From the IMG/VR virus record IMGVR_UViG_3300020416_000059, positions 1 to 26,620 of that record: a stretch of DNA of 26,620 nt; one strand, given 5' to 3'. The DNA is from a virus (Duplodnaviria; Caudoviricetes). The notes beneath the pieces are model-generated. The model did no database searches. It was not told the origin of the DNA and was given only the letters and a program-made list of their open reading frames with translations. Position numbers and translations under genes: made by a program. This document shows, piece after piece, positions 1 to 26,620 of this stretch (its first letter is position 1; every line of letters starts with the position of its first letter).

Positions 1-13
1 ATGGGACATATCT

Positions 14-232
14 CTATAGGCGGTTAATGACTTGCGGATTGTCAGTGGGATTATCTTTCTTCCACTCTATCCATAGTGTATATAGATCATCTAATACTTG
101 AGAAGCGTATGATGAGGCATAATAATCAGCACAGGCATACATCCTAGGGTCTAAGAATGACTCGTGCCTTATCAATTGCTCAATTGCCCATGTACGTGTG
201 TCTTGCCTCTGTGTGCGAACCTTAGAGTCCAT
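14..232 (-). CDS. hypothetical phage protein (72 aa)
   Basis: ORF track; AGGAGA Shine-Dalgarno just upstream of ATG. Confidence 0.75.
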   Translation of the reverse strand: MDSKVRTQRQDTRTWAIEQLIRHESFLDPRMYACADYYASSYASQVLDDLYTLWIEWKKDNPTDNPQVINRL

Positions 233-460
233 TTTTCTCCTGTGGAAAATTTTTTAATACCTGTGGAAAACTTTATTCGAATAATATAGCAATCGCTCTG
301 GGGAACCTTTGTAGGTTAGGGTAGTGGCCGTTTTTATATATTAAGGGGCGTAAATTAACTGCCCTGAGTAACATTTAGCACTGTTCACAGTTGTTATAAC
401 TTAGTGCATGTAATCTGTAGCGAATTGTTGTTACATAGTGGAACCCCCTTTCATGTCTCT

Positions 461-490
461 ATTATACCTCGGATGCTGCTAGGTTGTCAA
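461..490 (-). promoter_or_regulatory. sigma70-type promoter
   Basis: minus strand TTGACA (485-490), 18 bp, TATAAT (461-466). Confidence 0.7.
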
Positions 491-680
491 CCCCTAGATT
501 ATCAGCAATTTCCCAATACCATCCGATGCTCTTCACATATTCAAACGGTGTTGTCCTCGGAGTGTTGGGAAACTGTTCACCCCTCTCAATGCGGATGCCA
601 TCAATATACCTCTCAAGATCGTAGATAGATTTAAACTGACCTCGGAGAATCTCGTTGTTATCGTAGATAGTGTAAAGCAT
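462..680 (-). CDS. hypothetical phage protein (72 aa)
   Basis: ORF track; directly downstream of the promoter at 729-757. Confidence 0.7.
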   Translation of the reverse strand: MLYTIYDNNEILRGQFKSIYDLERYIDGIRIERGEQFPNTPRTTPFEYVKSIGWYWEIADNLGVDNLAASEV

Positions 681-728
681 AGGATTGAGTTAGATTAGAG
701 TTTGTTTTTCTGAACCCTTACAAGGTTC

Positions 729-757
729 ATTGTACCAAATTTCGGAGTGTTTGTCAA
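729..757 (-). promoter_or_regulatory. sigma70-type promoter
   Basis: minus strand TTGACA (752-757), 17 bp, TACAAT (729-734). Confidence 0.75.
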
Positions 758-859
758 GTGTCTCGGAGATTGTTAAGAGGTGCTTGACAGTTCATAGGAA
801 ACGTGCTAAGGGTGCATCACCTGAACACATTTACCGAGAGATAAAACACACACCTAGAT

Positions 860-1120
860 TTATTTAATGTTTTCCACAATTTCCGCATACTCTGTGGAAA
901 ACCTATTATAGGGTTTTGTGGGGTCTGGAATTATGGTCTTCCAATAGTCAGGATTAACTACTACGTTAACTTGCCTGTATGGGTTGATTGAATGCTCCGC
1001 CTCTTCGGGTGGTTTGAGTGACTCAGCAATGCATACGGTCACATACTGGTCAGAAACAAAATTGATATAGGAAGATCTACCCTCGTAGATTACAAATTGA
1101 CCTCTTTCAAATCTGCTCAT
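860..1120 (-). CDS. hypothetical phage protein (86 aa, MSRFERGQ...)
   Basis: ORF track, start moved to ATG 1120 to avoid overlap with the upstream gene. Confidence 0.7.
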   Translation of the reverse strand: MSRFERGQFVIYEGRSSYINFVSDQYVTVCIAESLKPPEEAEHSINPYRQVNVVVNPDYWKTIIPDPTKPYNRFSTEYAEIVENIK

Positions 1121-1130
1121 GGGTAAAACT

Positions 1131-1277
1131 CTATTTAGAATTTGGTTGGCAGTAACTAGGATCAATTTTACAAATCTGATCTAGTTTTTCGTTTTGTATC
1201 TCTTTAAGTGAGTTGATGGCGTTTAGTCCTATCTGGGCACCTATAAAGATAACAAAGATCATTAAAATATATCTCAT
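1131..1277 (-). CDS. small single-TM membrane protein (48 aa, MRYILMIF...)
   Basis: hydrophobic N-terminus; TAATG stop/start coupling with the upstream gene at 1277. Confidence 0.65.
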   Translation of the reverse strand: MRYILMIFVIFIGAQIGLNAINSLKEIQNEKLDQICKIDPSYCQPNSK

Positions 1278-1609
1278 TACGCCCCCACTGTAACGCCGTT
1301 GAAAAATGGTTTTGCTGTACCTGTTCCGAACTGTGAAAGGAACCAAACCCAGTTTTTTTGAAATACTTTTGAACCGTAAGAGAACTCACTTAGTAAAGCA
1401 TTCAAACGTGATTTAGTTGTATTTGATTCCCAACCGCCGTTGAAAAGTTGTAACTGTCTTTCAGCATGGAAATATGTAGCAATGTGATTTCCATGTAGGT
1501 AGACGGTAGACTCAAGACCGTTATCAGAAGTGAATACAGTTGTATTAGAACCAGACCAGTTTGACTGAGTTCTGATTGCTTTGTTCATTTGAGTTTCAAT
1601 TTTACGCAT
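1277..1609 (-). CDS. hypothetical phage protein (110 aa; YLHGNHIA...GGWESNTTKSRLNALL)
   Basis: ORF track; first gene after a promoter cassette and ACTTCTCAC leader. Confidence 0.85.
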   Translation of the reverse strand: MRKIETQMNKAIRTQSNWSGSNTTVFTSDNGLESTVYLHGNHIATYFHAERQLQLFNGGWESNTTKSRLNALLSEFSYGSKVFQKNWVWFLSQFGTGTAKPFFNGVTVGA

Positions 1610-1612
1610 GAT

Positions 1613-1699
1613 GTGAGAAGTGTTTGTTTGTTATGTACTTATTATAATGGAAAATAGGGGCATGTATACCCCTTGTGTGACACTTAATCGAGTGGCACA
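1613..1699 (-). promoter_or_regulatory. early promoter cassette copy 1
   Basis: palindrome TGTGACAC-N8-GTGGCACA 1676-1699; GGGG/CCCC hairpin 1657-1672; TATAAT 1641-1646; leader ACTTCTCAC. Confidence 0.8.
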
Positions 1700-1911
1700 T
1701 CTGGAAGCACGAACTGTGCTGCATCGTGGTAAGCATCGTAAAATAGATCCCACGCCTCGGAGTCATCCACAAATGAATCAAGACCGATCTGATCCGCTAC
1801 CCAGTCATAAGACTCGTCTAGATCTGCATTTGTATCAGCAACAAATGATGGAAGTTGATTAATCGCTGAAATGAAATTTTGATGTGTAGCAAGTGAAGTT
1901 TTTTTAGTCAT
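1684..1911 (-). CDS. acidic hypothetical protein (75 aa)
   Basis: ORF track; ACTTCTCAC leader at 1915-1923. Confidence 0.8.
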   Translation of the reverse strand: MTKKTSLATHQNFISAINQLPSFVADTNADLDESYDWVADQIGLDSFVDDSEAWDLFYDAYHDAAQFVLPDVPLD

Positions 1912-1947
1912 TTTGTGAGAAGTGTTTGTTTGCTGTATAATGATAAT

Positions 1948-2130
1948 TTAGAGGCACAGATCTTCAAAGCGTCTCTGTGCTTCCTCTGCAATAATAGGAA
2001 GATAACCCAACTCAGAATTTTGATCTAATGCGTCAAGTTGATCTGAAGTTAGATTGTGCTCTTTTCTGTAGTCCTCCCATGCCTCATCGTAGCATGTTTC
2101 TAAGAGTGTTTCGTGATGTAGTGATGACAT
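1948..2130 (-). CDS. acidic hypothetical protein (60 aa, MSSLHHETLL...)
   Basis: start reassigned to ATG 2130 (AAGGAA upstream, downstream of TATAAT 2155-2160). Confidence 0.75.
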   Translation of the reverse strand: MSSLHHETLLETCYDEAWEDYRKEHNLTSDQLDALDQNSELGYLPIIAEEAQRRFEDLCL

Positions 2131-2154
2131 AATAATTTCCTTTCGTATATTAAT

Positions 2155-2213
2155 ATTATAGGGGCACAGAGCACCTAATGGGGATTTGATGTGACACTTA
2201 GTAAGGTGTCCCA
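2155..2213 (-). promoter_or_regulatory. early promoter cassette copy 2
   Basis: TGTGACAC-N8-GTGTCCCA 2190-2213; TATAAT 2155-2160. Confidence 0.75.
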
Positions 2214-2392
2214 TTACTGTGGACTCTCCAGTCATTTTTGTTTATCATCTTTCTGCAAGACTGACAACTCAAAGCAGACCATGAAAAATGCCTGACTCTC
2301 TCAACTGAATAACAAGAGGGGCACATTATAAACTTTCCCCAGTGTCCCGATCTTGTATATCTGTCAACTGGTTTTAAATCTGCAAATTTCAT
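2198..2392 (-). CDS. small putative zinc-ribbon protein (64 aa)
   Basis: CPSC and CQSC motifs; ATGA coupling to the upstream gene. Confidence 0.75.
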   Translation of the reverse strand: MKFADLKPVDRYTRSGHWGKFIMCPSCYSVERVRHFSWSALSCQSCRKMINKNDWRVHSNGTPY

Positions 2393-2637
2393 GCTCTTGC
2401 CTCCTCTAGTGTTTTTTGCTGAACTAGTGTTCTATGAACGTCAAACAACTTTGTGAGATCAACGCCCTCTAGATCCTCCCACTCGCTGACATAATCCCAC
2501 ATTTCCCAGTCAGTGCTTCCATCTTTGAAAGTGGGTGCAGAGCAAAACTCGTTTTCTTCATCTAACCAAAATGTGCGTCCAAAATGTAGAGATAGGACAG
2601 TTTCAAACATTTGGGTGAATAAGTTGGGTGTTGTCAT
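2389..2637 (-). CDS. hypothetical protein (82 aa, MTTPNLFTQ...)
   Basis: start set at 2637 because the ACTTCTCAC leader lies at 2647-2655; alternative start 2709. Confidence 0.75.
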   Translation of the reverse strand: MTTPNLFTQMFETVLSLHFGRTFWLDEENEFCSAPTFKDGSTDWEMWDYVSEWEDLEGVDLTKLFDVHRTLVQQKTLEEARA

Positions 2638-2725
2638 TTTTGTCTCGTGAGAAGTGAAAATTTTGTATAAGCAAGAAAGGTATCCCTCAGCGTTTGGTAA
2701 TGTGAGCATCCTTGCTTATGTTCTT

Positions 2726-2784
2726 ATTATAGGGCATATATGTGACCCTACAACTTCGAATGTGACAGTTTGTCTACTGTCCAT
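2726..2784 (-). promoter_or_regulatory. early promoter cassette copy 3
   Basis: TGTGACAG-N8-CTGTCCAT 2761-2784; TAGGG/CCCTA hairpin 2730-2750; TATAAT 2726-2731. Confidence 0.75.
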
Positions 2785-2935
2785 TAGTGTAGGATCCCAT
2801 GATGCAAGCACCATAGCGAACCTCGGCATATCCATACTCTTCGGATAAGTCAAGGCATAGACCCCAACAATCATCTAAATTAACAAAAGATGAATTTTCG
2901 TAGGGTGCGGATGGGCAGTGAACTGAATAACGCAT
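2774..2935 (-). CDS. small hypothetical protein (53 aa, MRYSVHCPSAPYENSSFVNLDDCWGLCLDLSEEYGYAEVRYG...)
   Basis: translated by hand (below ORF-track cutoff); fills the space between cassettes 4 and 3. Confidence 0.75.
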   Translation of the reverse strand: MRYSVHCPSAPYENSSFVNLDDCWGLCLDLSEEYGYAEVRYGACIMGSYTNGQ

Positions 2936-2970
2936 AATATAAAAATTGAGTAATGTTTGATTATGACTTT

Positions 2971-3030
2971 ATTATGGCATAGAATACGGCAAAAATCAAG
3001 CGACCCTGTACCACTTCTCACACTGGCACA
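2971..3030 (-). promoter_or_regulatory. early promoter cassette copy 4
   Basis: TGTACCAC-N8-CTGGCACA 3007-3030; TTGATT 2994-2999, 17 bp, CATAAT 2971-2976. Confidence 0.75.
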
Positions 3031-3059
3031 AGATCGCTTGACTTCTGTTTCAATTCAAC

Positions 3060-3173
3060 TTATAAATCAGTTCCTCCTGTTTCTACTACTTCCACGATGT
3101 CATCAAGCACTGATAACAATTCATTGCCATTGTTTGTAGAGTCTAGCAGGAACTCGGCAAAATTAGGTGACAT
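3060..3173 (-). CDS. acidic microprotein (37 aa, MSPNFAEFLLDSTNNGNELLSVLDDIVEVVETGGTDL)
   Basis: translated by hand; same strand as neighbours, fills gap. Confidence 0.6.
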   Translation of the reverse strand: MSPNFAEFLLDSTNNGNELLSVLDDIVEVVETGGTDL

Positions 3174-3199
3174 AATAATAAGAATAGAATTGAACGAAA

Positions 3200-3287
3200 A
3201 CTGGACTTACAAAAGTGCTTGTATGTTTCTCGGATTAACTTAGTAGGATAACCCCACAAATCCGCATAACCTACACTTAACGCCAGT
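3200..3287 (-). other. extended intergenic RNA hairpin
   Basis: nested stems 3200-3204/3283-3287, 3213-3217/3274-3278, 3231-3236/3259-3264, 3243-3247/3253-3257. Confidence 0.5.
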
Positions 3288-3302
3288 ATTTAAAACGCGG
3301 AG

Positions 3303-3536
3303 TTATTCCGCATCGGTGAGATCGGGCAAGAATGTAAATACATAATTTCCGTCCTCTGGGTCTGCACCATCAACACACCACTCAGAATAGACGCTAACCG
3401 CATCATCTGGTCTTCCATCGTTTACACAAGTATGCATAGCATCGTAAAGAGCATCACGCATTGTGTCAATCATATGCTGTTGATCGTCAAGCACATCATC
3501 GTGCTCAGTGAAAAGATCTAGAGTTGAATCGTGCAT
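3303..3536 (-). CDS. acidic hypothetical protein (77 aa, MHDSTLDLF...)
   Basis: ORF track with start moved to 3536 to avoid overlap. Confidence 0.7.
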   Translation of the reverse strand: MHDSTLDLFTEHDDVLDDQQHMIDTMRDALYDAMHTCVNDGRPDDAVSVYSEWCVDGADPEDGNYVFTFLPDLTDAE

Positions 3537-3565
3537 TGTAAAAAGTGCGGTTTGATAAAAAGGAT

Positions 3566-3724
3566 TTAAGACTGTGCGTAGTCCCACAATTCTATGAACT
3601 GATTGAACCACTTAGCATGATCGGGGTGATAGTCTTGCTCATCAGCACTAACAAAGGGAAGTTCATGCTTAGTGCAATAATCTTTGTATACTTCTTGTAA
3701 AAAGTCAATGTTGTCATAAGTCAT
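3566..3724 (-). CDS. hypothetical protein (52 aa, MTYDNIDFLQ...)
   Basis: ATG just downstream of the ACTTCTCAC leader 3731-3739. Confidence 0.75.
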   Translation of the reverse strand: MTYDNIDFLQEVYKDYCTKHELPFVSADEQDYHPDHAKWFNQFIELWDYAQS

Positions 3725-3730
3725 GGGATT

Positions 3731-3814
3731 GTGAGAAGTTCGTTTGTATGTACCTATTATAAGAGGTGTGAGATGTGTTTGGGGCATCTATGTGACAGTT
3801 TCTAAACTGTCCTC
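3731..3814 (-). promoter_or_regulatory. early promoter cassette copy 5
   Basis: TGTGACAG-N8-CTGTCCTC 3791-3814; TATAAT 3756-3761; leader ACTTCTCAC. Confidence 0.75.
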
Positions 3815-4036
3815 TAAAATGATGTCCCTTACTCGCTCTCTGTCTAGACTGTCACCATAACCCCATGTATAATTGTTGTCAGGATTGTTTGATGCTTTTA
3901 ACAGTCTATGTTTGTAGATGTAAAAAGCATCATAAATTTTCTGTTCTGTCAATCCCTCTATAGGATATAAAACATCGGGGTGACTAGGTAGGTAAAAAGA
4001 TGCAACATAGTCAACGAATTCTTTAAGACTGTTCAT
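3788..4036 (-). CDS. hypothetical protein (82 aa)
   Basis: ORF track; GGAGG SD; TAATG coupling. Confidence 0.8.
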   Translation of the reverse strand: MNSLKEFVDYVASFYLPSHPDVLYPIEGLTEQKIYDAFYIYKHRLLKASNNPDNNYTWGYGDSLDRERVRDIILEDSLETVT

Positions 4037-4167
4037 TACTTACCTCCATTGAATTGTTTGATTAAGTGATCTGTATGACGATCTTGTTTAGCGATGAGAT
4101 CATCACATTTTTTGATGAGATCTCTTAGATGTGCCACATCTTTGTTAAAGTCTTTAGTAGTATACAT
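4036..4167 (-). CDS. small helical protein (43 aa, MYTTKDFNKDVAHLRDLIKKCDDLIAKQ...)
   Basis: translated by hand; abuts both neighbours; GGAGG SD upstream. Confidence 0.7.
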   Translation of the reverse strand: MYTTKDFNKDVAHLRDLIKKCDDLIAKQDRHTDHLIKQFNGGK

Positions 4168-4386
4168 TTAAGCAACCTCCCTGATATATCCATTTTCAGA
4201 TACCATGAACTTATCAAGTGTTGGGATGTCTAATTCAGGATCATCAAAATCGATTTTAGCACATCCATCAACACCCCACTCTGCTAACTCTTGAACGAAT
4301 TCTGCCCAGTTAGCACATACACAAGCAACATTTTGAAAGTTTTCAACTTGTAGTATTCTGTTAATAATGATTTGAGTTTTGTCCAT
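4168..4386 (-). CDS. hypothetical protein (72 aa)
   Basis: ORF track; ATG immediately after ACTTCTCAC leader. Confidence 0.8.
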   Translation of the reverse strand: MDKTQIIINRILQVENFQNVACVCANWAEFVQELAEWGVDGCAKIDFDDPELDIPTLDKFMVSENGYIREVA

Positions 4387-4472
4387 GTGAGAAGTTTGTT
4401 TGTTATGTACTTATTATAACCACACATACACCCCAATGGTGCAATGAGTGGACACTTTGTCAAACTGGCACA
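4387..4472 (-). promoter_or_regulatory. early promoter cassette copy 6
   Basis: GTGGACAC-N9-CTGGCACA 4448-4472; TATAAT 4413-4418; leader nearly identical to copy 1. Confidence 0.75.
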
Positions 4473-4700
4473 TCAAAACGTGATAACTAGGTGATCTGAG
4501 TCAAGATGTTCAAGAGTGCTTTCATCTGTATAATCTGTCATAATGGCAGGTACAAAATCATCATCCTGAAGTGAATATAACGTGACTGTCTGGTCTAGAT
4601 GATCCTCGTCTAGTCTATTCAATGTGTCCCTTAAGTCACGATAACTCATAGTTAAATCTTTGAGTATTGACCATGGGATAACTGTCCAAGTTGCACTCAT
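4473..4700 (-). CDS. acidic hypothetical protein (75 aa)
   Basis: ORF track; GGAGGA SD upstream of 4700. Confidence 0.75.
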   Translation of the reverse strand: MSATWTVIPWSILKDLTMSYRDLRDTLNRLDEDHLDQTVTLYSLQDDDFVPAIMTDYTDESTLEHLDSDHLVITF

Positions 4701-4714
4701 TTTAAAATCCTCCG

Positions 4715-5959
4715 CTAAACGTATGCTAGAGGTGGGACACCCTCTATAAAGATGTATGACACAACAGACTGAAGTCTGTCTGCGATTCTCTTACCATACT
4801 TACCAGTCATAGGCACCACGATCTGACCATGCTTTTTACGATACAAGTTGAACTGACCAACAGGAATCTTGCCTGATTTCATGTCACTTGCATCTTGCTG
4901 ATGAATCCTGATAACTCTACCAATTGTTTGTGCCATTTCAATTGTAGGCAAGTTTCTAAGCATAATTGAATGAGTCAAACCAGGAACATTGATACCCTCT
5001 GATAGTATAGAATAGTGGAATATTACAAACTTCTTAGCATCATCTTTACCCCACTCTGTGAGAGTATTGAAGAACTCTTCTCTACCAACTTTTGTACCAT
5101 TGATAATAGCACCATGCTTAGATGTGATGTGCATGATGTTATAATCACGCTCAAATAACCATGACTGAATATCAGTTTGTGAGAGCATATTCCAGAGTAT
5201 TCTTGTTGTTGGAGCACTCACAATTACCTTTGGATTGTTGTCAGTAATGTTTGTAAGTATGTCCTTTAAGTTGTCAGAATCAACTTCATGTGCATTCTGT
5301 CTGGTACGCTCTCTGTCTGTCTCAAATGGTATAACTTTGGGATACAAGATAGAACCGCTATCAATCAACTCTTTAGCGTCAGTTTGCTCTAGTATGTTAC
5401 CATATACCTGAGCATTATTCATGCCTCTCTCTGCACTTACATTGTGCTTAGAACGTGAAATGCGTGGTGTAGCAGTAAAGAAAAATCTCTCAATACCACT
5501 GGCAGCAACTCTTTTGATCTGCTCAAAGAATGACTTACCAGTGCTATTGTGTGCTTCATCAAAATATATTCTGTCAATATTTACCATGCTATCTAATACT
5601 CTGTTGAGTGAATGATAGGTAGTAAAGATTAACTTATCATACTGTGGATTGATGCTGTTCCAGTGTGTCAACTCAATGCTTTTAGTTGTGCTGAAGTGAT
5701 GAGTTTCACCACTGTGAACGTGGGCAATCTTGCAATTTTTGATCTCTGATTCAAACTCGTTAGATAACTGATTAGCAAGCAATATGCGTGGTGCAACTAC
5801 AACAATAGTCTGAGGACTGCGTGGAGTTGTTGTTACCAACCTCTTGCAATCTGCAATCATAATATAAGTTTTACCACCACCAGTAGGCACGATGATTTGA
5901 CCTGACTTTTCTGTGGTCATCTTGTCGTATGCTCTTTGCTGATGTGGTCTCAAGTTCAT
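4715..5959 (-). CDS. superfamily 2 DExH helicase/ATPase (Res-subunit-like)
   Basis: Q motif LRPHQ, Walker A PTGGGKT, DEAH box, motif III TAT, motif V EGINVP, motif VI QTIGRVIR. Confidence 0.92.
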   Translation of the reverse strand: MNLRPHQQRAYDKMTTEKSGQIIVPTGGGKTYIMIADCKRLVTTTPRSPQTIVVVAPRILLANQLSNEFESEIKNCKIAHVHSGETHHFSTTKSIELTHWNSINPQYDKLIFTTYHSLNRVLDSMVNIDRIYFDEAHNSTGKSFFEQIKRVAASGIERFFFTATPRISRSKHNVSAERGMNNAQVYGNILEQTDAKELIDSGSILYPKVIPFETDRERTRQNAHEVDSDNLKDILTNITDNNPKVIVSAPTTRILWNMLSQTDIQSWLFERDYNIMHITSKHGAIINGTKVGREEFFNTLTEWGKDDAKKFVIFHYSILSEGINVPGLTHSIMLRNLPTIEMAQTIGRVIRIHQQDASDMKSGKIPVGQFNLYRKKHGQIVVPMTGKYGKRIADRLQSVVSYIFIEGVPPLAYV

Positions 5960-5981
5960 AAATCAATCTTTCAATACTATA

Positions 5982-6039
5982 AGTTTACATGAAAAAACCC
6001 CTAGTGTCAAGGGGTTTGGACAGTTCGATGACTGTCACA
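5982..6039 (-). promoter_or_regulatory. early promoter cassette copy 7 (terminator-like hairpin carrying the -35)
   Basis: TTGGACAG-N8-CTGTCACA 6016-6039; minus strand AAACCCCT-tgacact-AGGGGTTTTTT; TTGACA 6005-6010, 17 bp, TAAACT 5982-5987. Confidence 0.8.
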
Positions 6040-6229
6040 CAGTCACACCTGTCTCCTTTAGAAGTAGTTTAACAAATCCCTCCAGATATACTAGAGGTAA
6101 GATCACTAACTCAAGTCCATTCAACTCAGTTAGATTTCTTTTCTTTGTTTCCACCTTAATAACATCTTGCTTAGGTTTCGCAGTTGTTGTTTTGCGTGTC
6201 CTACGTTTGCGAGGTGTTGTTGTTGTCAA
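6035..6229 (-). CDS. small protein, basic N-terminus and hydrophobic C-terminus (64 aa, TTG start)
   Basis: ORF track; lies directly downstream of the structured RNA. Confidence 0.6.
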   Translation of the reverse strand: MTTTTPRKRRTRKTTTAKPKQDVIKVETKKRNLTELNGLELVILPLVYLEGFVKLLLKETGVTV

Positions 6230-6253
6230 TGTAGTAAATCAAAGTGAAAAGAA

Positions 6254-6502
6254 TGTTAGAGGGAAAGGGGCATCAACATAGGTTTCACCTATATGCCCAA
6301 ATTTACCTACTGGGAATCGCTTACACCTGAACCCCTACTAAACAGCAAGTAATCATATAAGGAGTGTACATTGGCAGATGTCTGACTTATGCTAACTTGT
6401 TTACCAAGTCTAATTAAAGTCTCAGGGATGCCAATGTATGCCGTATCCAAAATGATTGAACCCTTGCTGAGTTCGGGCAGTAGAACCTTTATCCCTCCAA
6501 CA
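6254..6502 (-). ncRNA. candidate ~250-nt structured non-coding RNA or long 5' leader
   Basis: at least 8 mutually compatible stems; 5' end coincides with the predicted start site of promoter 6508-6535. Confidence 0.7.
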
Positions 6503-6507
6503 ATATT

Positions 6508-6566
6508 ATTATACATCATTCAAAAGGTGTGTCAGTCCATTGTGTGCCACTTCTTCAACTGGTACA
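6508..6566 (-). promoter_or_regulatory. early promoter cassette copy 8 (within the MTase 3' end)
   Basis: TGTGCCAC-N8-CTGGTACA 6543-6566; CTGACA 6530-6535, 16 bp, TATAAT 6508-6513. Confidence 0.75.
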
Positions 6567-7468
6567 TGATACTCACTTACTCTCTTCTTAATCAGGTCAC
6601 CATAATTTTCATGCAACTCGCATCCAATATAGTCTCTACCTAGTGATTTTGCTACTGCAGCAGTTGTTCCCGATCCCATGAATGGATCTAGTATGATGTC
6701 ACCCTTCTCGCTTCCTGAGAGGATACAAGGTTCAATTAGTTCAGGTGGATATGTAGCGAAGTGGGCACCCTTATACGGTTTCTTGTTTACTGTCCATACT
6801 GATCTTTTATTCTTCTTTTCGTAAGACTTAGTTAACCCAGTATGAGGGGATAAACCAGTGCCAGGATTATGATACTTCCCTTTACTACGATCTCTAGTGC
6901 CCCAGTCTTTTGCTTGTTCTTTAATTGCTTCATTGTCATAATAATAGTTCTTATTCTTACTCAATAGGAAGATATATTCATGGGATTTAGTACATCTATC
7001 TCTCACACTTTCAGGCATTGGATTAGGTTTATGCCAGATAATATCTTGTCTTAAATACCATCCATCTTTCCTTAATGCAAATGCCAACATCCAAGGTATA
7101 CCAATTAAATCTTTACTCTTTAATCCTTTTAATTTATTCCCTCTAACAGGTGTTTTAGTAGGTAAATCTTGTCTAGTTTTACTTACTGTTTGTTTTGGGT
7201 AATTACCATCACTTCTATAATTATAATAAGAGTCTCCTATATTGACCCATAAAGTTCCATCATCAGTAAGTATATTTCTTACTTCTCGAAATACTTTAAC
7301 TAACTCATCAATAAACTCTTCAGGACTTTGCTCTTGTCCTATTTGTGAGTCTTCCCCACCATAGTCTCTTAGACCATAGTAAGGTGGTGATGTTACACAC
7401 ATTCTTGCCTGTTCATCAAATTGTTTTAAGGTGTCTCTGCAGTCACCGAATAGAATTGTGTCTCTCAT
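6509..7468 (-). CDS. beta-class amino-DNA methyltransferase, likely N4-cytosine
   Basis: N-terminal catalytic motif TSPPY; C-terminal SAM motif DPFMGSGTT; HFATYP. Confidence 0.93.
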   Translation of the reverse strand: MRDTILFGDCRDTLKQFDEQARMCVTSPPYYGLRDYGGEDSQIGQEQSPEEFIDELVKVFREVRNILTDDGTLWVNIGDSYYNYRSDGNYPKQTVSKTRQDLPTKTPVRGNKLKGLKSKDLIGIPWMLAFALRKDGWYLRQDIIWHKPNPMPESVRDRCTKSHEYIFLLSKNKNYYYDNEAIKEQAKDWGTRDRSKGKYHNPGTGLSPHTGLTKSYEKKNKRSVWTVNKKPYKGAHFATYPPELIEPCILSGSEKGDIILDPFMGSGTTAAVAKSLGRDYIGCELHENYGDLIKKRVSEYHVPVEEVAHNGLTHLLNDV

Positions 7469-8202
7469 TAAAATAATTCTGTAAGAGGGTTACTTAAAGA
7501 TCCTATGCGATCTTTTGCTATGTTGTAATACTTTTCATCGTTTTCTATCCCTATAAAGTTTCTATCTGTATTAACACATGCAACTCCAGTTGTACCACTT
7601 CCCATAGTATTATCAAGGACTGTTTCACCTTTATTGGTGTATGTCTTGATTAAATATTCCATCAACCCTACTGGTTTTTGTGTAGGATGTAATCCCTTTT
7701 CTTGCTTATACTTTAATACAGTTTTAGGATAGCGTGATCCTTCAGGATTGTCTCTGTGTCTAGATTGTGCTTCACCATAAACTTCACCAATCTTTGCAGT
7801 ATCAGATTTAAATCCACTGTAAGGAGTTGAATACCACATTTGAGGGTTATATGTTGGTTTCTTTCTATAGAATACCAATATATTCTCATGTGATTTTAAT
7901 GGCATAACTTTGGCATTCATGGGATTAGTTCCTTGAGGTTTTTCCCATATCCATTCGTATTTAAAATTAGAAATATTAGATGATGCTAGGACAGTAGTAA
8001 ATGGTTGAGCAGCAGTAAACACCATTGCAGCATCCTCTTTACATACTCTATTATATTCTTTCCATAGTTTATCTAATGGGATAATACTATCCCACTTACA
8101 TGCAGTTGTACCATAAGGTAAATCTACCAACACCATATCAACTGAATCATCTGCAATTGTAGGTAACAAATCCAAACAATCACCGAGCAATAAACTAGTC
8201 AT
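7468..8202 (-). CDS. beta-class amino-DNA methyltransferase, likely N6-adenine
   Basis: catalytic DLPY, HPTQKP, LDNTMGSGTTG; TAATG coupling to the next MTase. Confidence 0.92.
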   Translation of the reverse strand: MTSLLLGDCLDLLPTIADDSVDMVLVDLPYGTTACKWDSIIPLDKLWKEYNRVCKEDAAMVFTAAQPFTTVLASSNISNFKYEWIWEKPQGTNPMNAKVMPLKSHENILVFYRKKPTYNPQMWYSTPYSGFKSDTAKIGEVYGEAQSRHRDNPEGSRYPKTVLKYKQEKGLHPTQKPVGLMEYLIKTYTNKGETVLDNTMGSGTTGVACVNTDRNFIGIENDEKYYNIAKDRIGSLSNPLTELF

Positions 8203-8206
8203 AAAT

Positions 8207-8743
8207 TTACCATTCAGAAATATCCTTCACGAAATCACATTCTAGCAGAAGATTGACTTTTGTGCAAATGTAGTCATCATTACCAATAGATTTACCACCT
8301 TGTTGAACATTGAATAAACAATCATCACTCTTGAGGTGTGCTTCAAAATCTTCTTTAGTAATAAACACAATGCGAGCATCTTTTTCATTAGGATTGATAC
8401 CACAGAAAATGAGTCTCTCCCAGTCTTTACCTACAGAAACATGATTGATAATAAATTTATCTTTATTCACCCCACCCTTCTTGTTACGAGTGGCAAGTGA
8501 GAATTTAATCTCTGTTTTTATACCATCAATTATTCTATCGTGACCTGCAGTTGATGTCTCTGCACGTTTTACAGCATGGTCAGCAATTAGCATATAGTAT
8601 GATACAAATCTCTCTCCAAATTCACCTTTTTGTTTTGGTGACATAAAAACATAACCCTTGAACGGAGTATCTTCCCAAGGATCTTGTACGTTAGAGTCAA
8701 TGTAGTTGCGTAACGTGCCAGTAGAGAAGATTGATTCAAACAT
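8207..8743 (-). CDS. putative PD-(D/E)xK endonuclease
   Basis: KGEFGE helix followed by HD...EIK; 4 bp from the MTase gene. Confidence 0.6.
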   Translation of the reverse strand: MFESIFSTGTLRNYIDSNVQDPWEDTPFKGYVFMSPKQKGEFGERFVSYYMLIADHAVKRAETSTAGHDRIIDGIKTEIKFSLATRNKKGGVNKDKFIINHVSVGKDWERLIFCGINPNEKDARIVFITKEDFEAHLKSDDCLFNVQQGGKSIGNDDYICTKVNLLLECDFVKDISEW

Positions 8744-8765
8744 TGTGCTTTGTTTAGATGTTAAT

Positions 8766-8824
8766 AATATAAACTAAAACAGCACCCTTGTGTAGAGTGC
8801 TGTGTAGGTTGTTCGATTGTCACA
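8766..8824 (-). promoter_or_regulatory. early promoter cassette copy 9
   Basis: TGTGTAGG-N8-TTGTCACA 8801-8824; CAGCAC/GTGCTG hairpin 8780-8802 with T run on minus strand; TATATT 8766-8771. Confidence 0.65.
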
Positions 8825-10019
8825 CTATGGTGATTAGACCATCATCAAATTCATCAGCAAGTTCAGGGAAACAAACCCAACTAGGATTTATAAATGTCCC
8901 ATCCTCGTACCTTAGTTTTCCTGCTTTATAAATTTCCTTAATAGTTTCATTTACTCTGTTTATAAATTGTCGCCTTTCTGCCTCTGCATTTTCTTTGGTT
9001 AATTTTCGTGCTTTATCAACTGTGAACGCAACAGTGATAGGTTTATTACTGCTCTGCAACTTACATATATGATGTGCAACAGTTATGTGACTCTCACCTT
9101 GTCCTTGTTTAACAATAATCCTTACACCTTTATCACTAACATAATCATGGTAATCCTCACTAGTTTTACTCCAGTTGATTACATGTTCTGCAATATAGTT
9201 CTTCATTTGATCTGAACCATACTGTTTACGATCAACAACTACGTTAGGATTATGTTGAATCTTACGAAGAATAGCATCAATCTCTTTGTGATGACTATAA
9301 TGATAAGTCCTTATCTCATCACGCAAAATCTTATCTTTTTCTCCATCCTCTGCATTTTCAAGTTTTGTATAGATATCGGATTCTTCATCCAAAATATCGT
9401 TACAAATTGCTGCAGCAACATCTTCAGGACTTCTTCCTAATTGGGGACAGTCAACTCTGTTTAGTTCAGCATTAGCAAACTTACGAATTTTACTAATTTC
9501 CATGTCAATCAACCAAGTGATAACACTTTCTTGGTTAGCATCACCCGCAGCAGCAAAACGATGTGACCCATCAACAATACCCCAGACTACTCGGTTACCA
9601 TCTTTATCAGTATATTGATACTCTTTAGGTAAACGAAACAGTATCATTGCAGGTCTACTAGGATTCCAATATCCATCCCAAATATCGTTAAGAATATTAT
9701 TCTTTTGTTTTTCATTGATATTAACATCTACACGAATTTGAAATCCTTTAGGTAAAACTTCATTAGTCACATTGTTCTTTATCTCTTTACCTGCTGGATG
9801 TACTGTATTAATATCAATTAACTCCAATACATTCGTAACCATCTTGCCACCATAGGCAACAACCAATTTATCAATCGGTTGACATTCTTTACGGCAACGA
9901 TTCAATAACTCACTATTGAATAGAAGATTTTCATTGATTTCGTGTGCAGTAAAATCTACACCAAAAAGTAAATTAAGATTTTCGTAGTCTTCTACTACGT
10001 TAGGTTCTTTTGTTGTCAT
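8820..10019 (-). CDS. ParB/Sulfiredoxin-like N-terminal domain protein (399 aa)
   Basis: FQIR...PAMIL...WGIVDGSHRFAA, the DGxHR motif of the ParB/Srx fold; C-terminal half unrecognised. Confidence 0.7.
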   Translation of the reverse strand: MTTKEPNVVEDYENLNLLFGVDFTAHEINENLLFNSELLNRCRKECQPIDKLVVAYGGKMVTNVLELIDINTVHPAGKEIKNNVTNEVLPKGFQIRVDVNINEKQKNNILNDIWDGYWNPSRPAMILFRLPKEYQYTDKDGNRVVWGIVDGSHRFAAAGDANQESVITWLIDMEISKIRKFANAELNRVDCPQLGRSPEDVAAAICNDILDEESDIYTKLENAEDGEKDKILRDEIRTYHYSHHKEIDAILRKIQHNPNVVVDRKQYGSDQMKNYIAEHVINWSKTSEDYHDYVSDKGVRIIVKQGQGESHITVAHHICKLQSSNKPITVAFTVDKARKLTKENAEAERRQFINRVNETIKEIYKAGKLRYEDGTFINPSWVCFPELADEFDDGLITIV

Positions 10020-10023
10020 TGTA

Positions 10024-10185
10024 TTACATTGGTATTACGTCCCACCCTTGATCCTTAGGTACAACATTTTCAATGATATGTTGTACAGAATCAAGACCAA
10101 AGACGACTGCTTCATGTTGTGAATAGAAACCATTTACTATAGGTTCACTGATCCAACAAACCTTATAACGGTTGTTGTCTTTCAT
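10024..10185 (-). CDS. small hypothetical protein (53 aa, MKDNNRYKVCW...)
   Basis: translated by hand; ATGA coupling to the upstream ORF. Confidence 0.65.
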   Translation of the reverse strand: MKDNNRYKVCWISEPIVNGFYSQHEAVVFGLDSVQHIIENVVPKDQGWDVIPM

Positions 10186-10313
10186 TTATTAAGAGGCGAA
10201 TTGAAATATGCTTTGTTTACTGTGTATACAGTAAAAAGTGCTACTGCAATGCCAAGAAAACCCAACCAAAGAATAGGTGAGTGTGGAAAATCGTAAGTTG
10301 GAATAGTGGTCAT
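10182..10313 (-). CDS. single-TM microprotein (43 aa, MTTIPTYDFPHSPILWLGFLGIAVALFTVYTVNKAYFNSPLNK)
   Basis: translated by hand; ATGA coupling at both ends. Confidence 0.7.
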   Translation of the reverse strand: MTTIPTYDFPHSPILWLGFLGIAVALFTVYTVNKAYFNSPLNK

Positions 10314-10610: not shown

Positions 10611-10649
10611 GATTAATATAACGTAAATTTAGAGTGATGTGTGAAGATG

Positions 10650-10673
10650 TGTGCAGGTTCTTCAACCGTCACT
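10650..10673 (-). promoter_or_regulatory. cassette copy 10 (degenerate palindrome)
   Basis: TGTGCAGG-TTCTTCAA-CCGTCACT; spacer identical to copy 8; promoter hexamers unclear. Confidence 0.55.
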
Positions 10674-24246: not shown

Positions 24247-24422
24247 TTAATATACTCCACTTGATAAGGGGGCATTTTTTTAATCTCAACCTCAACAGGA
24301 GATTGAAGAATTCTAATGAGTTTGTGATATGCTACTGCTGTGAATACTTGGGGCACTATGAATGCGATCATTGCGACCACCCAAAACATGTAGTAATAGT
24401 TTTCTTTGTTTTGTGTTCTCAT
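24243..24422 (-). CDS. single-TM protein (59 aa, MRTQNKENYYYMFW...)
   Basis: translated by hand; TAATG coupling. Confidence 0.7.
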   Translation of the reverse strand: MRTQNKENYYYMFWVVAMIAFIVPQVFTAVAYHKLIRILQSPVEVEIKKMPPYQVEYIK

Positions 24423-24616
24423 TAATAATATCTAGGTTGGTCTTGGATTACCTCTACTTCAATAGCATCGAAGATTCTATGTAGTGAACGAGCAAAAATT
24501 CTGTATCCTGCACCAACATATAATTGACCAAGAACTACAGATGTTGTTGCAACACCCCAGAAGATGTAATAAAATTTAGATTTCACTTGGTTACGTTGTT
24601 TCTCTTTAGTAATCAT
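24422..24616 (-). CDS. single-TM protein (64 aa)
   Basis: ORF track; ATGA coupling. Confidence 0.75.
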   Translation of the reverse strand: MITKEKQRNQVKSKFYYIFWGVATTSVVLGQLYVGAGYRIFARSLHRIFDAIEVEVIQDQPRYY

Positions 24617-24933
24617 TTGTCTTCATGTTTATGTTCAAGTTTACCAGCAATTTTATATGCGTCTGATTTACCACCATGACCATGTGCAATTCCTAGTTCA
24701 TGCATTTTAGCATGCTCGTCAATTTGATCTCTGAGTTCTTCTTTACCAGGACCAAATGTAAGATAGATTCCATATACTACTAGTGCTAGAACGAATAAAC
24801 CAAGAAACACCGCAAACGCAGCACCACCTGATAAATTGGCATGTGGAATGACGTATGCTTTACAAGTTTCTGGATCAAACTTTTGCCAAGTGCCAGGCAA
24901 AGTGTAGATTGGTGGGCAAGATAAGAAAATCAT
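24613..24933 (-). CDS. psbN: PsbN-like membrane protein with His-rich tail
   Basis: TM helix followed by YGIYLTFGPGKEELRDQIDEH, resembling the PsbN signature Y.IY.AFG.PS..LRDPFEEH. Confidence 0.7.
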   Translation of the reverse strand: MIFLSCPPIYTLPGTWQKFDPETCKAYVIPHANLSGGAAFAVFLGLFVLALVVYGIYLTFGPGKEELRDQIDEHAKMHELGIAHGHGGKSDAYKIAGKLEHKHEDK

Positions 24934-25484
24934 AAAAAATTAAAGTTTATGTTAAATCTACCAAAATCGGTAGTAGTTGTTGTTGATCTATGTGAATTTT
25001 GAGCATCAAAGACGACTAACCTATTTGCAACAGATTTTATACGTTTTTGTTTGAGATATGGCATATCATACTCAAATTCTGTGTAACCGTCACAAGTATT
25101 CATTGATAAAACTGCACCAACATTTTGCCAATCAAAATCGGTATGATAACTATGGTGCTTGATTTCTTGAGTCCACGGATAAAAATTTGCCTTGATTCTA
25201 ATTATTGATTTGTAATTGTATACTTTTTCTTTAATTAGAGGCAAAACCTTGTCTCGTATTTCATCATAAAATGGATGTCTTACTTCATCTTCTGAGTAAA
25301 TCATTGATATACCCATCCAATTCCATAGTGGCATCTCTTCTCCTTCTTCAGCGACGTTTGATTGTAGTTGATACAGAATTTGTCTATCATGCCAAGTTCC
25401 CATTACAACTTTAGAGATGTAATCGAAAGTTTCGTCATCAAGAAAGTTATCAAATACTTGGCGGTGAACTAGATGTTGTTCCAT
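24930..25484 (-). CDS. 2OG-Fe(II) oxygenase
   Basis: YHTD, NTCDGYTEF, SVANRLVVFD...H, RFNINF. Confidence 0.87.
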   Translation of the reverse strand: MEQHLVHRQVFDNFLDDETFDYISKVVMGTWHDRQILYQLQSNVAEEGEEMPLWNWMGISMIYSEDEVRHPFYDEIRDKVLPLIKEKVYNYKSIIRIKANFYPWTQEIKHHSYHTDFDWQNVGAVLSMNTCDGYTEFEYDMPYLKQKRIKSVANRLVVFDAQNSHRSTTTTTDFGRFNINFNFL

Positions 25485-25689
25485 CAGACAAAAATTGTTT
25501 TTGAAATTCTTCTACCTGAGTTTGTATTTCCTCTGATACATGAGGAATTTCATTTACAGGAACAAGCATAGCAGATTTGCCATCGTTACGAGTAATTTTC
25601 CAACAGACACGTTGTGATTCTGTTAGATCCATAATAAAATCAAAGTGATCTTCTGCCTGACGCAGTGTAACTCCAATAGGTCCAATCAT
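25450..25689 (-). CDS. Phd/YefM antitoxin-like protein
   Basis: VTLRQAEDHFDFIMD...WKITRNDGKSAMLVP fits the Phd N-terminal DNA-binding pattern. Confidence 0.6.
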   Translation of the reverse strand: MIGPIGVTLRQAEDHFDFIMDLTESQRVCWKITRNDGKSAMLVPVNEIPHVSEEIQTQVEEFQKQFLSDGTTSSSPPSI

Positions 25690-25886
25690 TCTTGTAACTC
25701 AGCAAAACAATACGTAATCATATCAGGATCAAGGATATCTTCAATGTCTCTGACAGTTTCAGAAAAACCATCAGAACCTTCTTTATCCCATTTCCAGTTT
25801 ACAGTCTTGTCATACCCCTCATCATCCACAATATTAATTGAGCGTTTTGAGAAGTTGACAAAAACGTGTGCTAGTTTAGATTCCAC
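25686..25886 (-). CDS. acidic hypothetical protein (66 aa, GTG start)
   Basis: ORF track; AAGGAG SD; promoter upstream. Confidence 0.8.
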   Translation of the reverse strand: MESKLAHVFVNFSKRSINIVDDEGYDKTVNWKWDKEGSDGFSETVRDIEDILDPDMITYCFAELQE

Positions 25887-25910
25887 GTGTGACTCCTTAC
25901 TACAATATCT

Positions 25911-25939
25911 AGTATAGCAGTCAGAGGGTGCTCTGTCAA
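25911..25939 (-). promoter_or_regulatory. sigma70-type promoter with extended -10
   Basis: TTGACA 25934-25939, 17 bp, TGc-TATACT 25911-25916; CAGAG/CTCTG hairpin in the spacer. Confidence 0.8.
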
Positions 25940-25942
25940 GAC

Positions 25943-26620
25943 TTAGTTGATGAAGACTGTCTTACCAAGGATCAAGACTGCCGCTTTTGCTTCGAGAAGC
26001 ATACCAGTACCACAGGTTATTGTACACGCAAGACTAGCGTTCATTATCAACGCACCTGCTACAGCATTAACATTGTACATTCCAGTAAGAACATTACAGT
26101 TATATCCTGTTGTACCACATGTTAGTGAGTATGGTCCAAGTGGGTTAGCAATAATATATCTAGGAACAGCATCAGCAGAAAGACCAGGTACCATAACTGT
26201 TTCAACAGAACCACCAACCATTCTACGAATACCTGTAATTGCTTTGGGAAGAGGTGAAGGTGGTGTATTGATCATCTCAATTAATGAAGGTGTAATAAGA
26301 TCAATAGAATTATCTCCACTAATAATAACTTCTCCTGCAGATAGTGCCATCTGACCACCGCTAGATTCAAACACACTGCTTGTAAATTTACTAGAAACCG
26401 ATCCTACATTAAACTCTGCACCTTGAACTTCAAACTTAGCACCAACAGTATTGATGTCAACATCAGATCCAAATTTGATTGTATGTTTTTGAACTTTTTC
26501 GTTTTTCTTCTCACCTTTTTTATTTACAACTTTAGGAGCACCCTCAGCATCAAAGAAGAAACCACCACCAACTTCAATATGACAATCACCTGTAATCTTT
26601 AAGAAATAATCACCATCGAC
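25943..26620 (-). CDS. C-terminal part of a gp5-like baseplate hub/spike protein (runs off the window)
   Basis: frame open from 26620 (VDGDYFLKITGDCHIEVGG...); 8-residue VxG repeats; ends ILGKTVFIN. Confidence 0.65.
   Translation of the reverse strand, partial: VDGDYFLKITGDCHIEVGGGFFFDAEGAPKVVNKKGEKKNEKVQKHTIKFGSDVDINTVGAKFEVQGAEFNVGSVSSKFTSSVFESSGGQMALSAGEVIISGDNSIDLITPSLIEMINTPPSPLPKAITGIRRMVGGSVETVMVPGLSADAVPRYIIANPLGPYSLTCGTTGYNCNVLTGMYNVNAVAGALIMNASLACTITCGTGMLLEAKAAVLILGKTVFIN

Follow-up and report, generated by a model that had tools for sequence, protein, structure and literature searches.

Loss of RGCY sites across T4-like cyanophages is most complete in a block beside a conserved non-coding element

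The chlorovirus IL-3A reportedly makes its own RG^CY endonuclease, CviJI, together with a C5 methylase. Phages T5 and T7 have site-free regions in the DNA that enters the cell first, and Dam sites act as signals at the E. coli oriC. The alpha-class methylases M.CbeI, M.Ssp6803II and DmtB produce GGm4CC (PMC3425538, PMC6105098, PMC8616854); M.CbeI, which targets GGCC (PMC3425538), is an N4-cytosine enzyme with the structure 7M6B (PMC8616854). In SMRT data RGCY was the commonest methylated motif of marine viral genomes, occurring in nine that were Myoviridae-like, with 17-69% of sites methylated and two genomes called m5C; five of the seven RGCY-methylated genomes with gene rows examined had a GGCC-m4C-like methylase (PMC8919816). 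These genomes are not established as cyanophages. Cyanomyoviruses lack denA, ndd and denB, yet they degrade host DNA (PMC2984593, PMC6708340), and how T4-like cyanophages do so without denA and denB is treated as an open question in a review (PMC2984593).

The window (the whole 26,620-nucleotide stretch analysed here) comes from a P-SSM7-like T4-type cyanophage, with marine cyanobacteria as hosts. Near-identical pieces of positions 1-9000 were present in contigs from four public marine runs and, therefore, the window is not an assembly artefact. The preliminary description had reported just three RGCY sites (at 326, 15099 and 17642) and no AGCT, and exact tetramer counting agreed fully (AGCT 0, GGCC 1, GGCT 1, AGCC 1); positions 17646-26620 held no further site. 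The words it had called abundant were counted at 178 and 141 (AGCA, TGCT), 61 and 85 (GGCA, TGCC) and 110 (GATC), with AGCA and GGCA being enriched. Its estimates of about 36% GC and about 200 expected sites became 37.8% and 105-236 sites, depending on the model: 236 by base composition, 194 by a first-order model and about 105 by a maximal-order Markov model. The Markov and codon-shuffle nulls it had proposed put RGCY far under every expectation. Synonymous shuffling of the codons of 44 minus-strand ORFs gave 119.7 ± 8.0 sites against the 2 observed, the lowest count in 100 shuffles being 103. Exact counts and codon shuffling thus ruled out base composition or codon usage as the cause of the loss.

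Table 1. Positions of the features discussed, in window coordinates
Feature	Position	Strand	Remarks
Pair of perfect DnaA boxes, cyanobacterial type	241-249, 262-270	-	directly downstream of the element
Conserved 20-base non-coding element	305..324	-	core of a longer motif; origin-like by its surroundings
GGCC	326..329	.	non-coding; separated by one base from the conserved element; borders the RGCY-free block
RGCY-free stretch, 14.8 kb	330..15098	.	small-ORF cluster, helicase, restriction-modification slot, first tail genes
Two perfect DnaA boxes in inverted orientation	870-878, 893-901	.	roughly 550 bases upstream of the element
Kyanoviridae Gp96 family protein	1277..1609	-	PF23790; marker gene adjoining the element; confident predicted model, no fold match
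ResIII/DEAD-type helicase	4715..5959	-	within the RGCY-free block in most relatives
319-aa N6/N4 methyltransferase (SPPY)	6509..7468	-	PF01555
244-aa N6/N4 methyltransferase	7468..8202	-	PF01555; predicted TCGA-specific partner of the nuclease
178-aa PD-(D/E)XK-type endonuclease	8207..8743	-	phrog_6927; predicted TCGA cutter
GGCT	15099..15102	.	residual RGCY within the 1329-aa tail fibre gene
AGCC	17642..17645	.	residual RGCY close to the tail fibre gene start

The depletion was limited to RGCY, with AGCG/CGCT (52) and GGCG/CGCC (36) at undepleted levels. We also observed losses that the preliminary description had not picked up: CCGG and GCGC were absent from the window, CGCG occurred once and TCGA was reduced to about half. 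The data supported selection on the RGCY word itself. For alanine, GCY codons made up 0 of 110 after a purine-ending codon, compared to 176 of 301 after a pyrimidine, and synonymous escape from RGCY was seen in all three frames.

Among the relatives, all but one of the 12 complete cyanomyophage genomes had RGCY at 0.13-0.25 of expectation, and the observed-to-expected ratio (O/E) did not exceed 0.42 in any of the 160 loci counted. The loss of RGCY is therefore a family-wide trait of T4-like cyanophages; searches of the openly accessible literature gave no description of it. In ACG-2014f, which keeps a diverged core methylase, RGCY reached 0.56 of expectation and the depletion fell mainly on GGCC (0.12).

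The near-total absence claimed earlier held for the window, but in whole genomes it is regional and most complete in a block beside the conserved element. Syntenic RGCY-free gaps of 9.7-21.9 kb were found in 8 of the 12 complete genomes, ending in six at the conserved non-coding element near DnaA boxes; S-PM2 and G005 had no long gap, while the gaps of P-HM2 and ACG-2014f lay elsewhere. What is new here is this 10-22 kb RGCY-free block, mostly ending at a conserved element, in a region that presumably carries early genes. For eight genomes (in two of which the edge was placed by the gap itself and not by the element), ORFs in the 10 kb upstream of the edge contained 1 RGCY against 317 expected from codon shuffling, compared to 1,909 against 8,125 in ORFs elsewhere. 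Across 105 non-redundant loci we counted 0.196 RGCY per kb upstream of the element and 1.31 downstream. A low upstream level of CCWGG disappeared after codon shuffling (0.86 vs 0.90), and an apparently low level of GGWCC rested on 12 against 24 after the shuffle.

The 20-base element had at least 120 exact matches in viral contigs (about 250 by estimate) and was present in 7 of 13 genomes; Rfam gave no match to it, the sole Rfam match found being a tRNA. RGCC abutted the element, in the position of the window's GGCC, in 59 of 99 related loci (GGCC 38, AGCC 21). Perfect DnaA boxes, by the cyanobacterial consensus of PMC4674748, numbered 112 in the bin from -1000 to -500 upstream of the element and occurred there in 44 of 64 loci, compared to 0.02 per kb downstream. 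In the window they clustered at a conserved place (241-901), as would be expected of a DnaA-dependent origin. GC skew was close to zero in the 2 kb upstream, with no lasting change of sign. We tentatively regard the element as a candidate replication origin; origin function and a lag of methylation behind copying go together in this reading, to which we would give somewhat less than an even chance.

A gene with a PF02086 domain passed the threshold in 12 of the 13 records; the remaining record is 58% complete. The P-SSM7 copy, PSSM7_162, which served for the fold and motif comparisons since the record of the window stops short of the gene, matched 421 phage records, of which 413 carry the name Synechococcus, Prochlorococcus or Cyanophage. 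This core gene lies between gp44 and gp62, with 2OG oxygenases and small ORFs as further neighbours; none of these was a cognate restriction enzyme of the kind found beside CbeI. Its product has the PF02086 fold and a DPPY motif, and was nearer to M.CbeI (best PDB match 7M6B, E 2e-47) than to GATC methylases (8e-11 to 1e-5). By these comparisons the Dam annotation is likely a mis-annotation of an RGCY m4C methylase, and we hold its predicted specificity for RGCY with good confidence.

The preliminary description had pointed to the nuclease and methylase genes at 6509-8743 as a candidate. In the family of the 178-aa protein, E41/E44, D69 and E78-I-K80 were invariant; its fold assignment came from Foldseek, with I-Ssp6803I, NhoI, Eco15I and PvuII as neighbours (best E 1.3e-3), and a search of 1.84 billion representatives returned 255 unnamed homologs that revealed no specificity. 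In loci without the 244-aa methylase TCGA was observed 25 times against 768 expected (0.03) and was absent from 25 of 30 loci, compared to 467 against 1,412 (0.33) and absence from 2 of 40 loci with it. ACG-2014f was an exception to this pattern. Such distributions make TCGA the likely target of the nuclease and the 244-aa methylase its likely TCGA-specific partner, and very probably the module is an exchangeable TCGA system in its own right. The 319-aa methyltransferase had a close homolog in 5 of 11 RGCY-poor genomes and its presence tracked the loss of CCCWGG and GGACCC; it is not the cause of the RGCY loss.

More generally, the words followed a two-level pattern: those of unpartnered nucleases fell to zero, as TCGA did in S-SSM4 (0 observed of 501 expected), while those with a partner methylase fell partly. 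RGCY belongs to this second, partly reduced type. Many CG-centred 6-base palindromes were absent too, suggesting that more enzymes than one phage carries have exerted pressure.

No restriction-enzyme family was found among the 112 proteins of P-SSM7, no RGCY nuclease among the core unknown proteins, and the 28 window ORFs contained PF01555 methylases with no restriction-enzyme family. Presence and absence across 6 and then 13 genomes gave nothing convincing for RGCY or CCGG. Neither did scans with Pfam and PHROGs, filtering by motif or a profile built on the 178-aa family; these covered ORFs of 75-420 aa and part of those that were shorter, longer or spanned 20-kb cuts. Gp96 was considered as a nuclease and dropped, its good predicted model having no fold match. 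On balance we still think that a phage-made RGCY nuclease probably exists.

The explanation we prefer, at just under an even chance, is a phage methylase with a putative phage nuclease, sites being purged where copying likely precedes methylation. It starts from what was counted or located directly: the site counts, the family range, the block with its edge, and the core methylase with its nearest solved relative. The core methylase would mark RGCY on phage DNA, and the putative nuclease, likely phage-made, would cleave RGCY that lacks the mark, whether on the host chromosome or on the DNA of rival phages. Phage sites would be a risk whenever methylation lags, and thus would be down four- to eightfold genome-wide and not to zero. 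DNA of the block, on one side of the origin-like element, may go through the first round of copying, or through several, while the methylase, itself encoded among the replication genes, is still building up; sites there would then be purged almost fully. Several observations count against this explanation: the searches gave no RGCY nuclease and no partner adjoining the methylase, HTVC008M is depleted with neither PF02086 nor PF01555, ACG-2014f depletes mainly GGCC despite its diverged core methylase, four genomes have no long gap or have it elsewhere, GC skew keeps its sign at the element, published RGCY methylation is partial (17-69%; PMC8919816), and many CG-centred 6-base palindromes are missing.

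Of the strong nuclease selection proposed in the preliminary description, selection on the word stood and a phage nuclease remains the preferred source of it, though none was identified; host defence and the module it had named fared worse. As an RGCY system, the 8207-8743 nuclease with its two methylases gets next to no weight from us. Loci bearing the module did have some of the lowest RGCY levels, but these loci fall within the block; Syn9, S-SZBM1, S-SM1 and S-PM2, which lack close homologs of all three genes, had O/E of 0.15-0.24, and seven complete relatives without the nuclease or a close homolog of the 244-aa methylase were still at 0.13-0.25. The nuclease co-varied with TCGA instead: S-SSM4 and G005, where it is unpartnered, had 284 and 336 RGCY sites and 0 and 3 TCGA. 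Restriction by Prochlorococcus and Synechococcus, with the phage methylase and site loss as counter-defence, would fit the general precedent for site avoidance (PMC6286503), the many missing palindromes and the avoidance of GGCC by P-SSP7 (6 sites, O/E 0.09). However, RGCY was undepleted in host DNA (O/E 0.97-1.24; 11 per kb in Prochlorococcus and 24-36 in picocyanobacteria of higher GC, compared to 0.11 in the window) and in four same-host phages without a PF02086 gene (P-SSP7, Syn5, S-TIM5 and P-SS2; 0.90-1.24). A host methylase search confined to PF02086-type enzymes found PF02086 in one of five host genomes and a single match (26%) across 30 genomes that belong to one Prochlorococcus genus, and restriction systems are called uncommon in these picocyanobacterial hosts (PMC6708340). 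Neither mark of host-driven avoidance, a site shunned by unrelated same-host phages or a host methylase (PF02086-type), was borne out. Since hosts and these four phages keep RGCY, host defence is weakened to a very unlikely reading, and the phage family itself looks like the source of the pressure. Mutation of the marked cytosine by the phage's own methylation, with no selection involved, is largely refuted and hardly credible to us. These phages do have a core methylase of suitable type, and hypermutation at m4C has been reported. In the alanine frame, however, both marked positions are non-synonymous and sites are removed by third-position swaps; moreover, AGCA and GGCA are enriched, and the sharp block would be left without a reason.

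The element also admits a reading in which no nuclease is necessary: methylated RGCY would be a signal read there by a phage or host protein, the block being kept free of decoys. In 83 of 99 loci an RGCY was found no more than 45 bases upstream of the element, the abutting sites alternating between GGCC and AGCC; the failed nuclease searches agree with this reading, and methylation control of P1 pac is cited in PMC8919816. RGCY further upstream was higher in loci without a near site (0.52 vs 0.07 per kb), but this contrast depends on three related loci. The near site was missing in 16 of 99, of which three of the six with long flanks were still clean upstream; a four- to eightfold loss over 180 kb is not easily covered, and conservation of the GCC could have a different cause, with these bases belonging to the element. 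We consider the signal unlikely. Quite unlikely, in our view, is that the block enters the cell first or forms a long terminal repeat, and is exposed to an RGCY nuclease of a co-infecting phage or host before it is protected. Of 74 loci, 49 had a contig end in the 3 kb upstream of the element and 3 had one downstream, the S-SZBM1 record begins at its block edge, and an outside nuclease would cover both the GGCC loss of P-SSP7 and the Pelagibacter phage HTVC008M (RGCY 0.25). On the other hand, the break points spread over distances between 11 and several thousand bases, which would be expected of a variable repeat-rich region, and T4-like phages have circularly permuted genomes. The literature and the contigs of the matching public runs, with no RNA run among those listed, gave no terminus data.

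T4-like cyanophages are major killers of ocean cyanobacteria. A broader picture, which we consider doubtful, is that restriction-type enzymes made by these phages break down the host chromosome, self and host being told apart by sequence. It would combine a family-wide RGm4CY mark set by a methylase linked to the replisome, an RGCY-free zone of 10-22 kb anchored at a DnaA-box origin and bearing one conserved RGCY switch at its edge, and swappable unpartnered four-base cutters of TCGA, TTAA or GTAC, with targets fully erased from the genome. The core "dam" gene is the likely source of RGCY as the most frequent motif of viruses in the marine SMRT data. For the 178-aa protein family TCGA is the predicted target, with TTAA predicted for a distant form; the sharp block points to a conserved, unannotated origin-like element, and missing words could be used to predict the nuclease content of uncultured phages.

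Compared with CviJI, whose specificity the preliminary description had invoked, the phages share the motif and the scheme of a lytic virus that would cleave the DNA of its host while marking its own. Nothing else resembled that system: in the window we detected neither a C5 methylase nor a CviJI-like protein, and the candidate here is an alpha-class N4 methylase located well away from any nuclease. A regional stretch without sites, over presumed early genes, is reminiscent of T5 and T7, but the block ends at an internal origin-like element and not at a known genome end. The core methylase shares PF02086, DPPY, the Dam annotation and close similarity with the M.CbeI type; unlike it, this is a phage core gene between gp44 and gp62, with a wider predicted target, RGCY, and no adjacent restriction enzyme. 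The 300-644 instances per genome of the m4C motif RGCY reported by Hiraoka et al. (2022) are in keeping with the 187-417 double-stranded sites of our own counts, while the parts of that paper on the motif matched no methylase to it and described no depletion, site-free block or nuclease (PMC8919816). As in lytic phages that avoid restriction sites, short words were lost through synonymous change (PMC6286503), but here the hosts and other same-host phages keep RGCY. The task is likely that of DenA and DenB in T4, turning the host chromosome into nucleotides while the phage is spared (PMC2984593). T4 is shielded by modified cytosine, whereas the cyanophages would rely on absent TCGA, TTAA, GTAC and CCGG or on sparse, methylated RGCY.

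An exact count agreed with the tally in the preliminary description: AGCT is absent, and the remaining RGCY words (GGCC, GGCT and AGCC) occur once each, at 326, 15099 and 17642. Expected numbers of RGCY sites in the window were 236 from base composition, 194 under a first-order model and ≈105 under a maximal-order Markov model, while the 44 minus-strand ORFs had 2 sites compared to 119.7 ± 8.0 under synonymous codon shuffle. Alanine codons of the GCY type were avoided only after a purine (0 of 110, compared to 176 of 301 after a pyrimidine). Therefore, the avoidance is selection on the DNA word itself via silent change, not the loss of a mutable methylated base, and the earlier claim of selection is borne out by the alanine codons. 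The window also had no CCGG, no GCGC and a single CGCG.

By Pfam and PHROGs the window encodes tail fibres, a baseplate hub, 2OG-Fe(II) oxygenases, a Kyanoviridae Gp96 protein, a helicase and two PF01555 methylases. The tail fibre matched 461 phage records, almost all cyanophages, and P-SSM7 is collinear with the window from ~16 to 47 kb. The source record consists of the window alone.

RGCY depletion is a trait of the whole cyanomyophage family. The observed/expected ratio (O/E) was at most 0.42 in all 160 loci counted (counting the window itself and two identical loci) and 0.13–0.25 in 11 of 12 complete genomes, the exception being ACG-2014f (0.56, with chiefly GGCC low). The near-total absence noted earlier holds throughout the window, the most extreme RGCY-poor part of the genome, but not genome-wide: P-SSM7 keeps 246 sites, all of them outside the stretch between 24,662 and 46,543. 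In 8 of 12 genomes a syntenic gap spans 9.7–21.9 kb (rough chance values 5e-3 to 3e-11); a long gap is missing in S-PM2 and G005 and lies elsewhere in P-HM2 and ACG-2014f. This RGCY-free block is probably the early-gene region.

In the window and six genomes the gap ends at, or within ~420 bases of, a conserved 20-base non-coding element, which GGCC 326-329 adjoins in the window. Of 99 loci, 59 have RGCC directly next to the element, 24 have another RGCY no more than 45 bases away, and 16 have no such site. Across 105 non-redundant viral loci RGCY density was 0.196 per kb upstream of the element compared to 1.31 downstream, and RGCR and YGCY were flat. The 10 kb upstream of the edge had 1 site versus 317 expected, and the remainder 1909 versus 8125 (codon-shuffled; edges of P-RSM6 and S-SZBM1 defined by the gap itself). 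The window has five perfect DnaA boxes (consensus taken from PMC4674748), four of them no more than 600 bases from the element; the -1000 to -500 bin of related loci contains 112 such boxes (44 of 64 loci). GC skew showed no clear switch at the element.

Coordinates of features in the window and in related phages
Feature	Location	Strand	Remark
399-aa ORF, no family	window 8820-10019		beside nuclease; P-SSM7 is the only one of six genomes compared to share it
tRNA gene	window 23748-23831	minus	Rfam RF00005
Fifth perfect DnaA-type box	window 10282-10290		far from element
Second RGCY-poor stretch	P-SSM7 123.3-131.8 kb; P-HM2 123.1-132.8 kb; S-SSM4 101.9-111.9 kb		shorter; directly upstream of core methylase, among replication/recombination genes
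Distant homolog (35%) of 178-aa nuclease	S-ShM2, L212:7030-7536		no methylase beside it
173-aa ORF, no family	S-SM1, L221:3513-4034		directly after helicase, the nuclease position in other phages
ORF-plus-methylase pair	Syn9 gp61-gp62, L607:4805-6305		same slot
ORF-plus-methylase pair	G004, L478:1663-2801		same slot
Weak S-adenosylmethionine lyase family match	P-SSM7, L184:1059-1745		E 3e-6; phage with three methylases

A ‘dam’-annotated PF02086 gene between gp44 and gp62, the core methylase, exceeded the Pfam threshold in 12 of 13 records and matched 421 phage records; comparison with P-SSM7 suggests that the window's own phage carries it outside the window. Its best PDB match by far was 7M6B, which is M.CbeI (PMC8616854), a PF02086 enzyme producing GGm4CC (PMC3425538); M.Ssp6803II likewise yields GGm4CC (PMC6105098). 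Hiraoka et al. 2022 (PMC8919816) report RGCY methylation in 9 marine viral genomes, more than for any other motif, with 17–69% of sites called modified. The portions of that paper used here assign RGCY to no methylase, give a GGCC-m4C-type best hit in 5 of the 7 RGCY-methylated genomes with gene rows examined, and describe these genomes as Myoviridae-like, not as cyanophages. The core methylase is a fitting candidate for RGCY methylation. HTVC008M is a counter-example, being RGCY-poor (O/E 0.25, 120 of 147 kb counted) with no PF02086 or PF01555 gene in its record. This phage (L423-L428) has two TCGA, one CGCG and about a quarter of the expected GATC.

The preliminary description offered a nuclease and methylase module as a candidate cause and named equal depletion in relatives lacking it as evidence against that link. 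Such depletion was observed: seven complete relatives that lack both the 178-aa nuclease and any near relative of the 244-aa methylase are still RGCY-poor, and four of these, Syn9, S-SZBM1, S-SM1 and S-PM2, with no close homolog of any module gene, have O/E of 0.15–0.24. The link fails, and the module is hardly credible as the RGCY cause.

The core of the 178-aa protein, E..D..E-I-K, is invariant, and the nearest folds to its confident model were PD-(D/E)XK endonucleases (best E 1.3e-3). We counted TCGA in 70 of 84 loci homologous to this nuclease, omitting the distant S-ShM2 form, two with a non-adjacent methylase and 11 with <900 bases downstream. Loci without the 244-aa methylase had 25 TCGA where 768 were expected (no site at all in 25 of 30), and the TCGA-poor ones fall on at least four separate branches; loci with it had 467 versus 1412 (zero in 2 of 40), and 78 comparison loci picked by a structural gene had 1670 versus 2058. 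Whole-genome counts were 0 versus 501 in S-SSM4, three sites in G005, and 259 versus 346 in P-SSM7, which carries the 244-aa methylase. Against the link, ACG-2014f has an unpartnered nuclease gene yet retains 335 TCGA sites, depletion is incomplete in three metagenomic loci, and TCGA is also scarce in many partnered ones. The S-ShM2 genome, 59% AT, has no TTAA where 963 are expected. Presence of the 319-aa methylase goes with loss of CCCWGG and GGACCC (5 genomes versus 6). Since TCGA is lost where the nuclease lacks the 244-aa methylase and module-free relatives are RGCY-poor, the module is very probably a swappable, predicted TCGA system that happens to sit inside the RGCY-free block.

Several other words are scarce. 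GTAC was zero versus 462 expected in S-SM1, whose 173-aa ORF is a candidate unpartnered GTAC cutter, and reached 0.33 of the expected count in Syn9 and 0.38 in G004. CCGG does not occur, or occurs just once, in 10 of the 12 complete cyanomyophage genomes (W01-W03, W05, W07, W13-W16, G004) and present in ACG-2014f and G005; a gene responsible for its loss was sought and none was found. P-SSM7 and P-RSM6 lack both GCGC and CGCG. In complete genomes of different genera, many 6-base palindromes are missing or almost missing: GACGTC in all six compared, and CACGTG, AGCGCT, TGCGCA, GTGCAC, GCATGC and CTCGAG in most.

Restriction by the host, the other source proposed earlier, is weakened because hosts and unrelated same-host phages keep RGCY. 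Host DNA around psbA had 11.2 RGCY per kb (O/E 0.97, 31 Prochlorococcus loci), and Synechococcus and Cyanobium psbA-region loci had 24–36 per kb compared to 0.11 in the window. The ratio was 0.97 and 1.24 in the whole genomes of podoviruses P-SSP7 and Syn5, 0.90 in S-TIM5 (100 of 172 kb counted) and 1.16 in P-SS2 (60 of 108 kb). In favour of host restriction, P-SSP7 (L409-L411) avoids GGCC (6 sites). This podovirus also avoids CGWCG (0/18) and CCSGG (1/8); AGCT and AGCC are not avoided. A PF02086-type search found the gene in one of five host genomes, and the phage core methylase, used as a query, hit a single genome among 30 from one Prochlorococcus genus, with a 26% match. PMC6708340 calls restriction systems uncommon in Prochlorococcus/Synechococcus hosts and reports host genome degradation; PMC2984593 gives denA, ndd and denB as missing from cyanomyoviruses. 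Host restriction is thus very unlikely, and mutational erosion of the methylated base, at odds with the silent-change avoidance after purines, is more unlikely still.

We tentatively favor a phage-made RGCY nuclease, because RGCY falls partly genome-wide, the core methylase fits, hosts are rich in the word, and unrelated phages that infect them retain it. The phage's own DNA would be protected by methylation, and every site would be lost where replication would run ahead of methylase accumulation. Across the family, a word associated with an unpartnered nuclease disappears completely, and one that has a partner methylase is only reduced. The earlier proposal of an RGCY-directed nuclease survives as a phage enzyme, but the flagged gene is not linked to RGCY, and a search by presence/absence across genomes, Pfam, PHROGs, a motif filter and the 178-aa profile found no RGCY nuclease. 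Methylation acting as a signal at the putative origin, whose flank would be kept free of decoys, is unlikely, and an explanation by first-entry DNA or a terminal repeat is quite unlikely.

There is precedent for site avoidance, for restriction enzymes made by viruses and for RGCY as a methylated motif. The depletion of RGCY throughout the family, the proposed match of the core methylase to this word, the block anchored at a putative origin and the tie between the nuclease and TCGA appear to be new, as our literature search found no description of them. The proposed cyanophage system would work like the CviJI-type virus system, yet by the features tested it is not a member of it.
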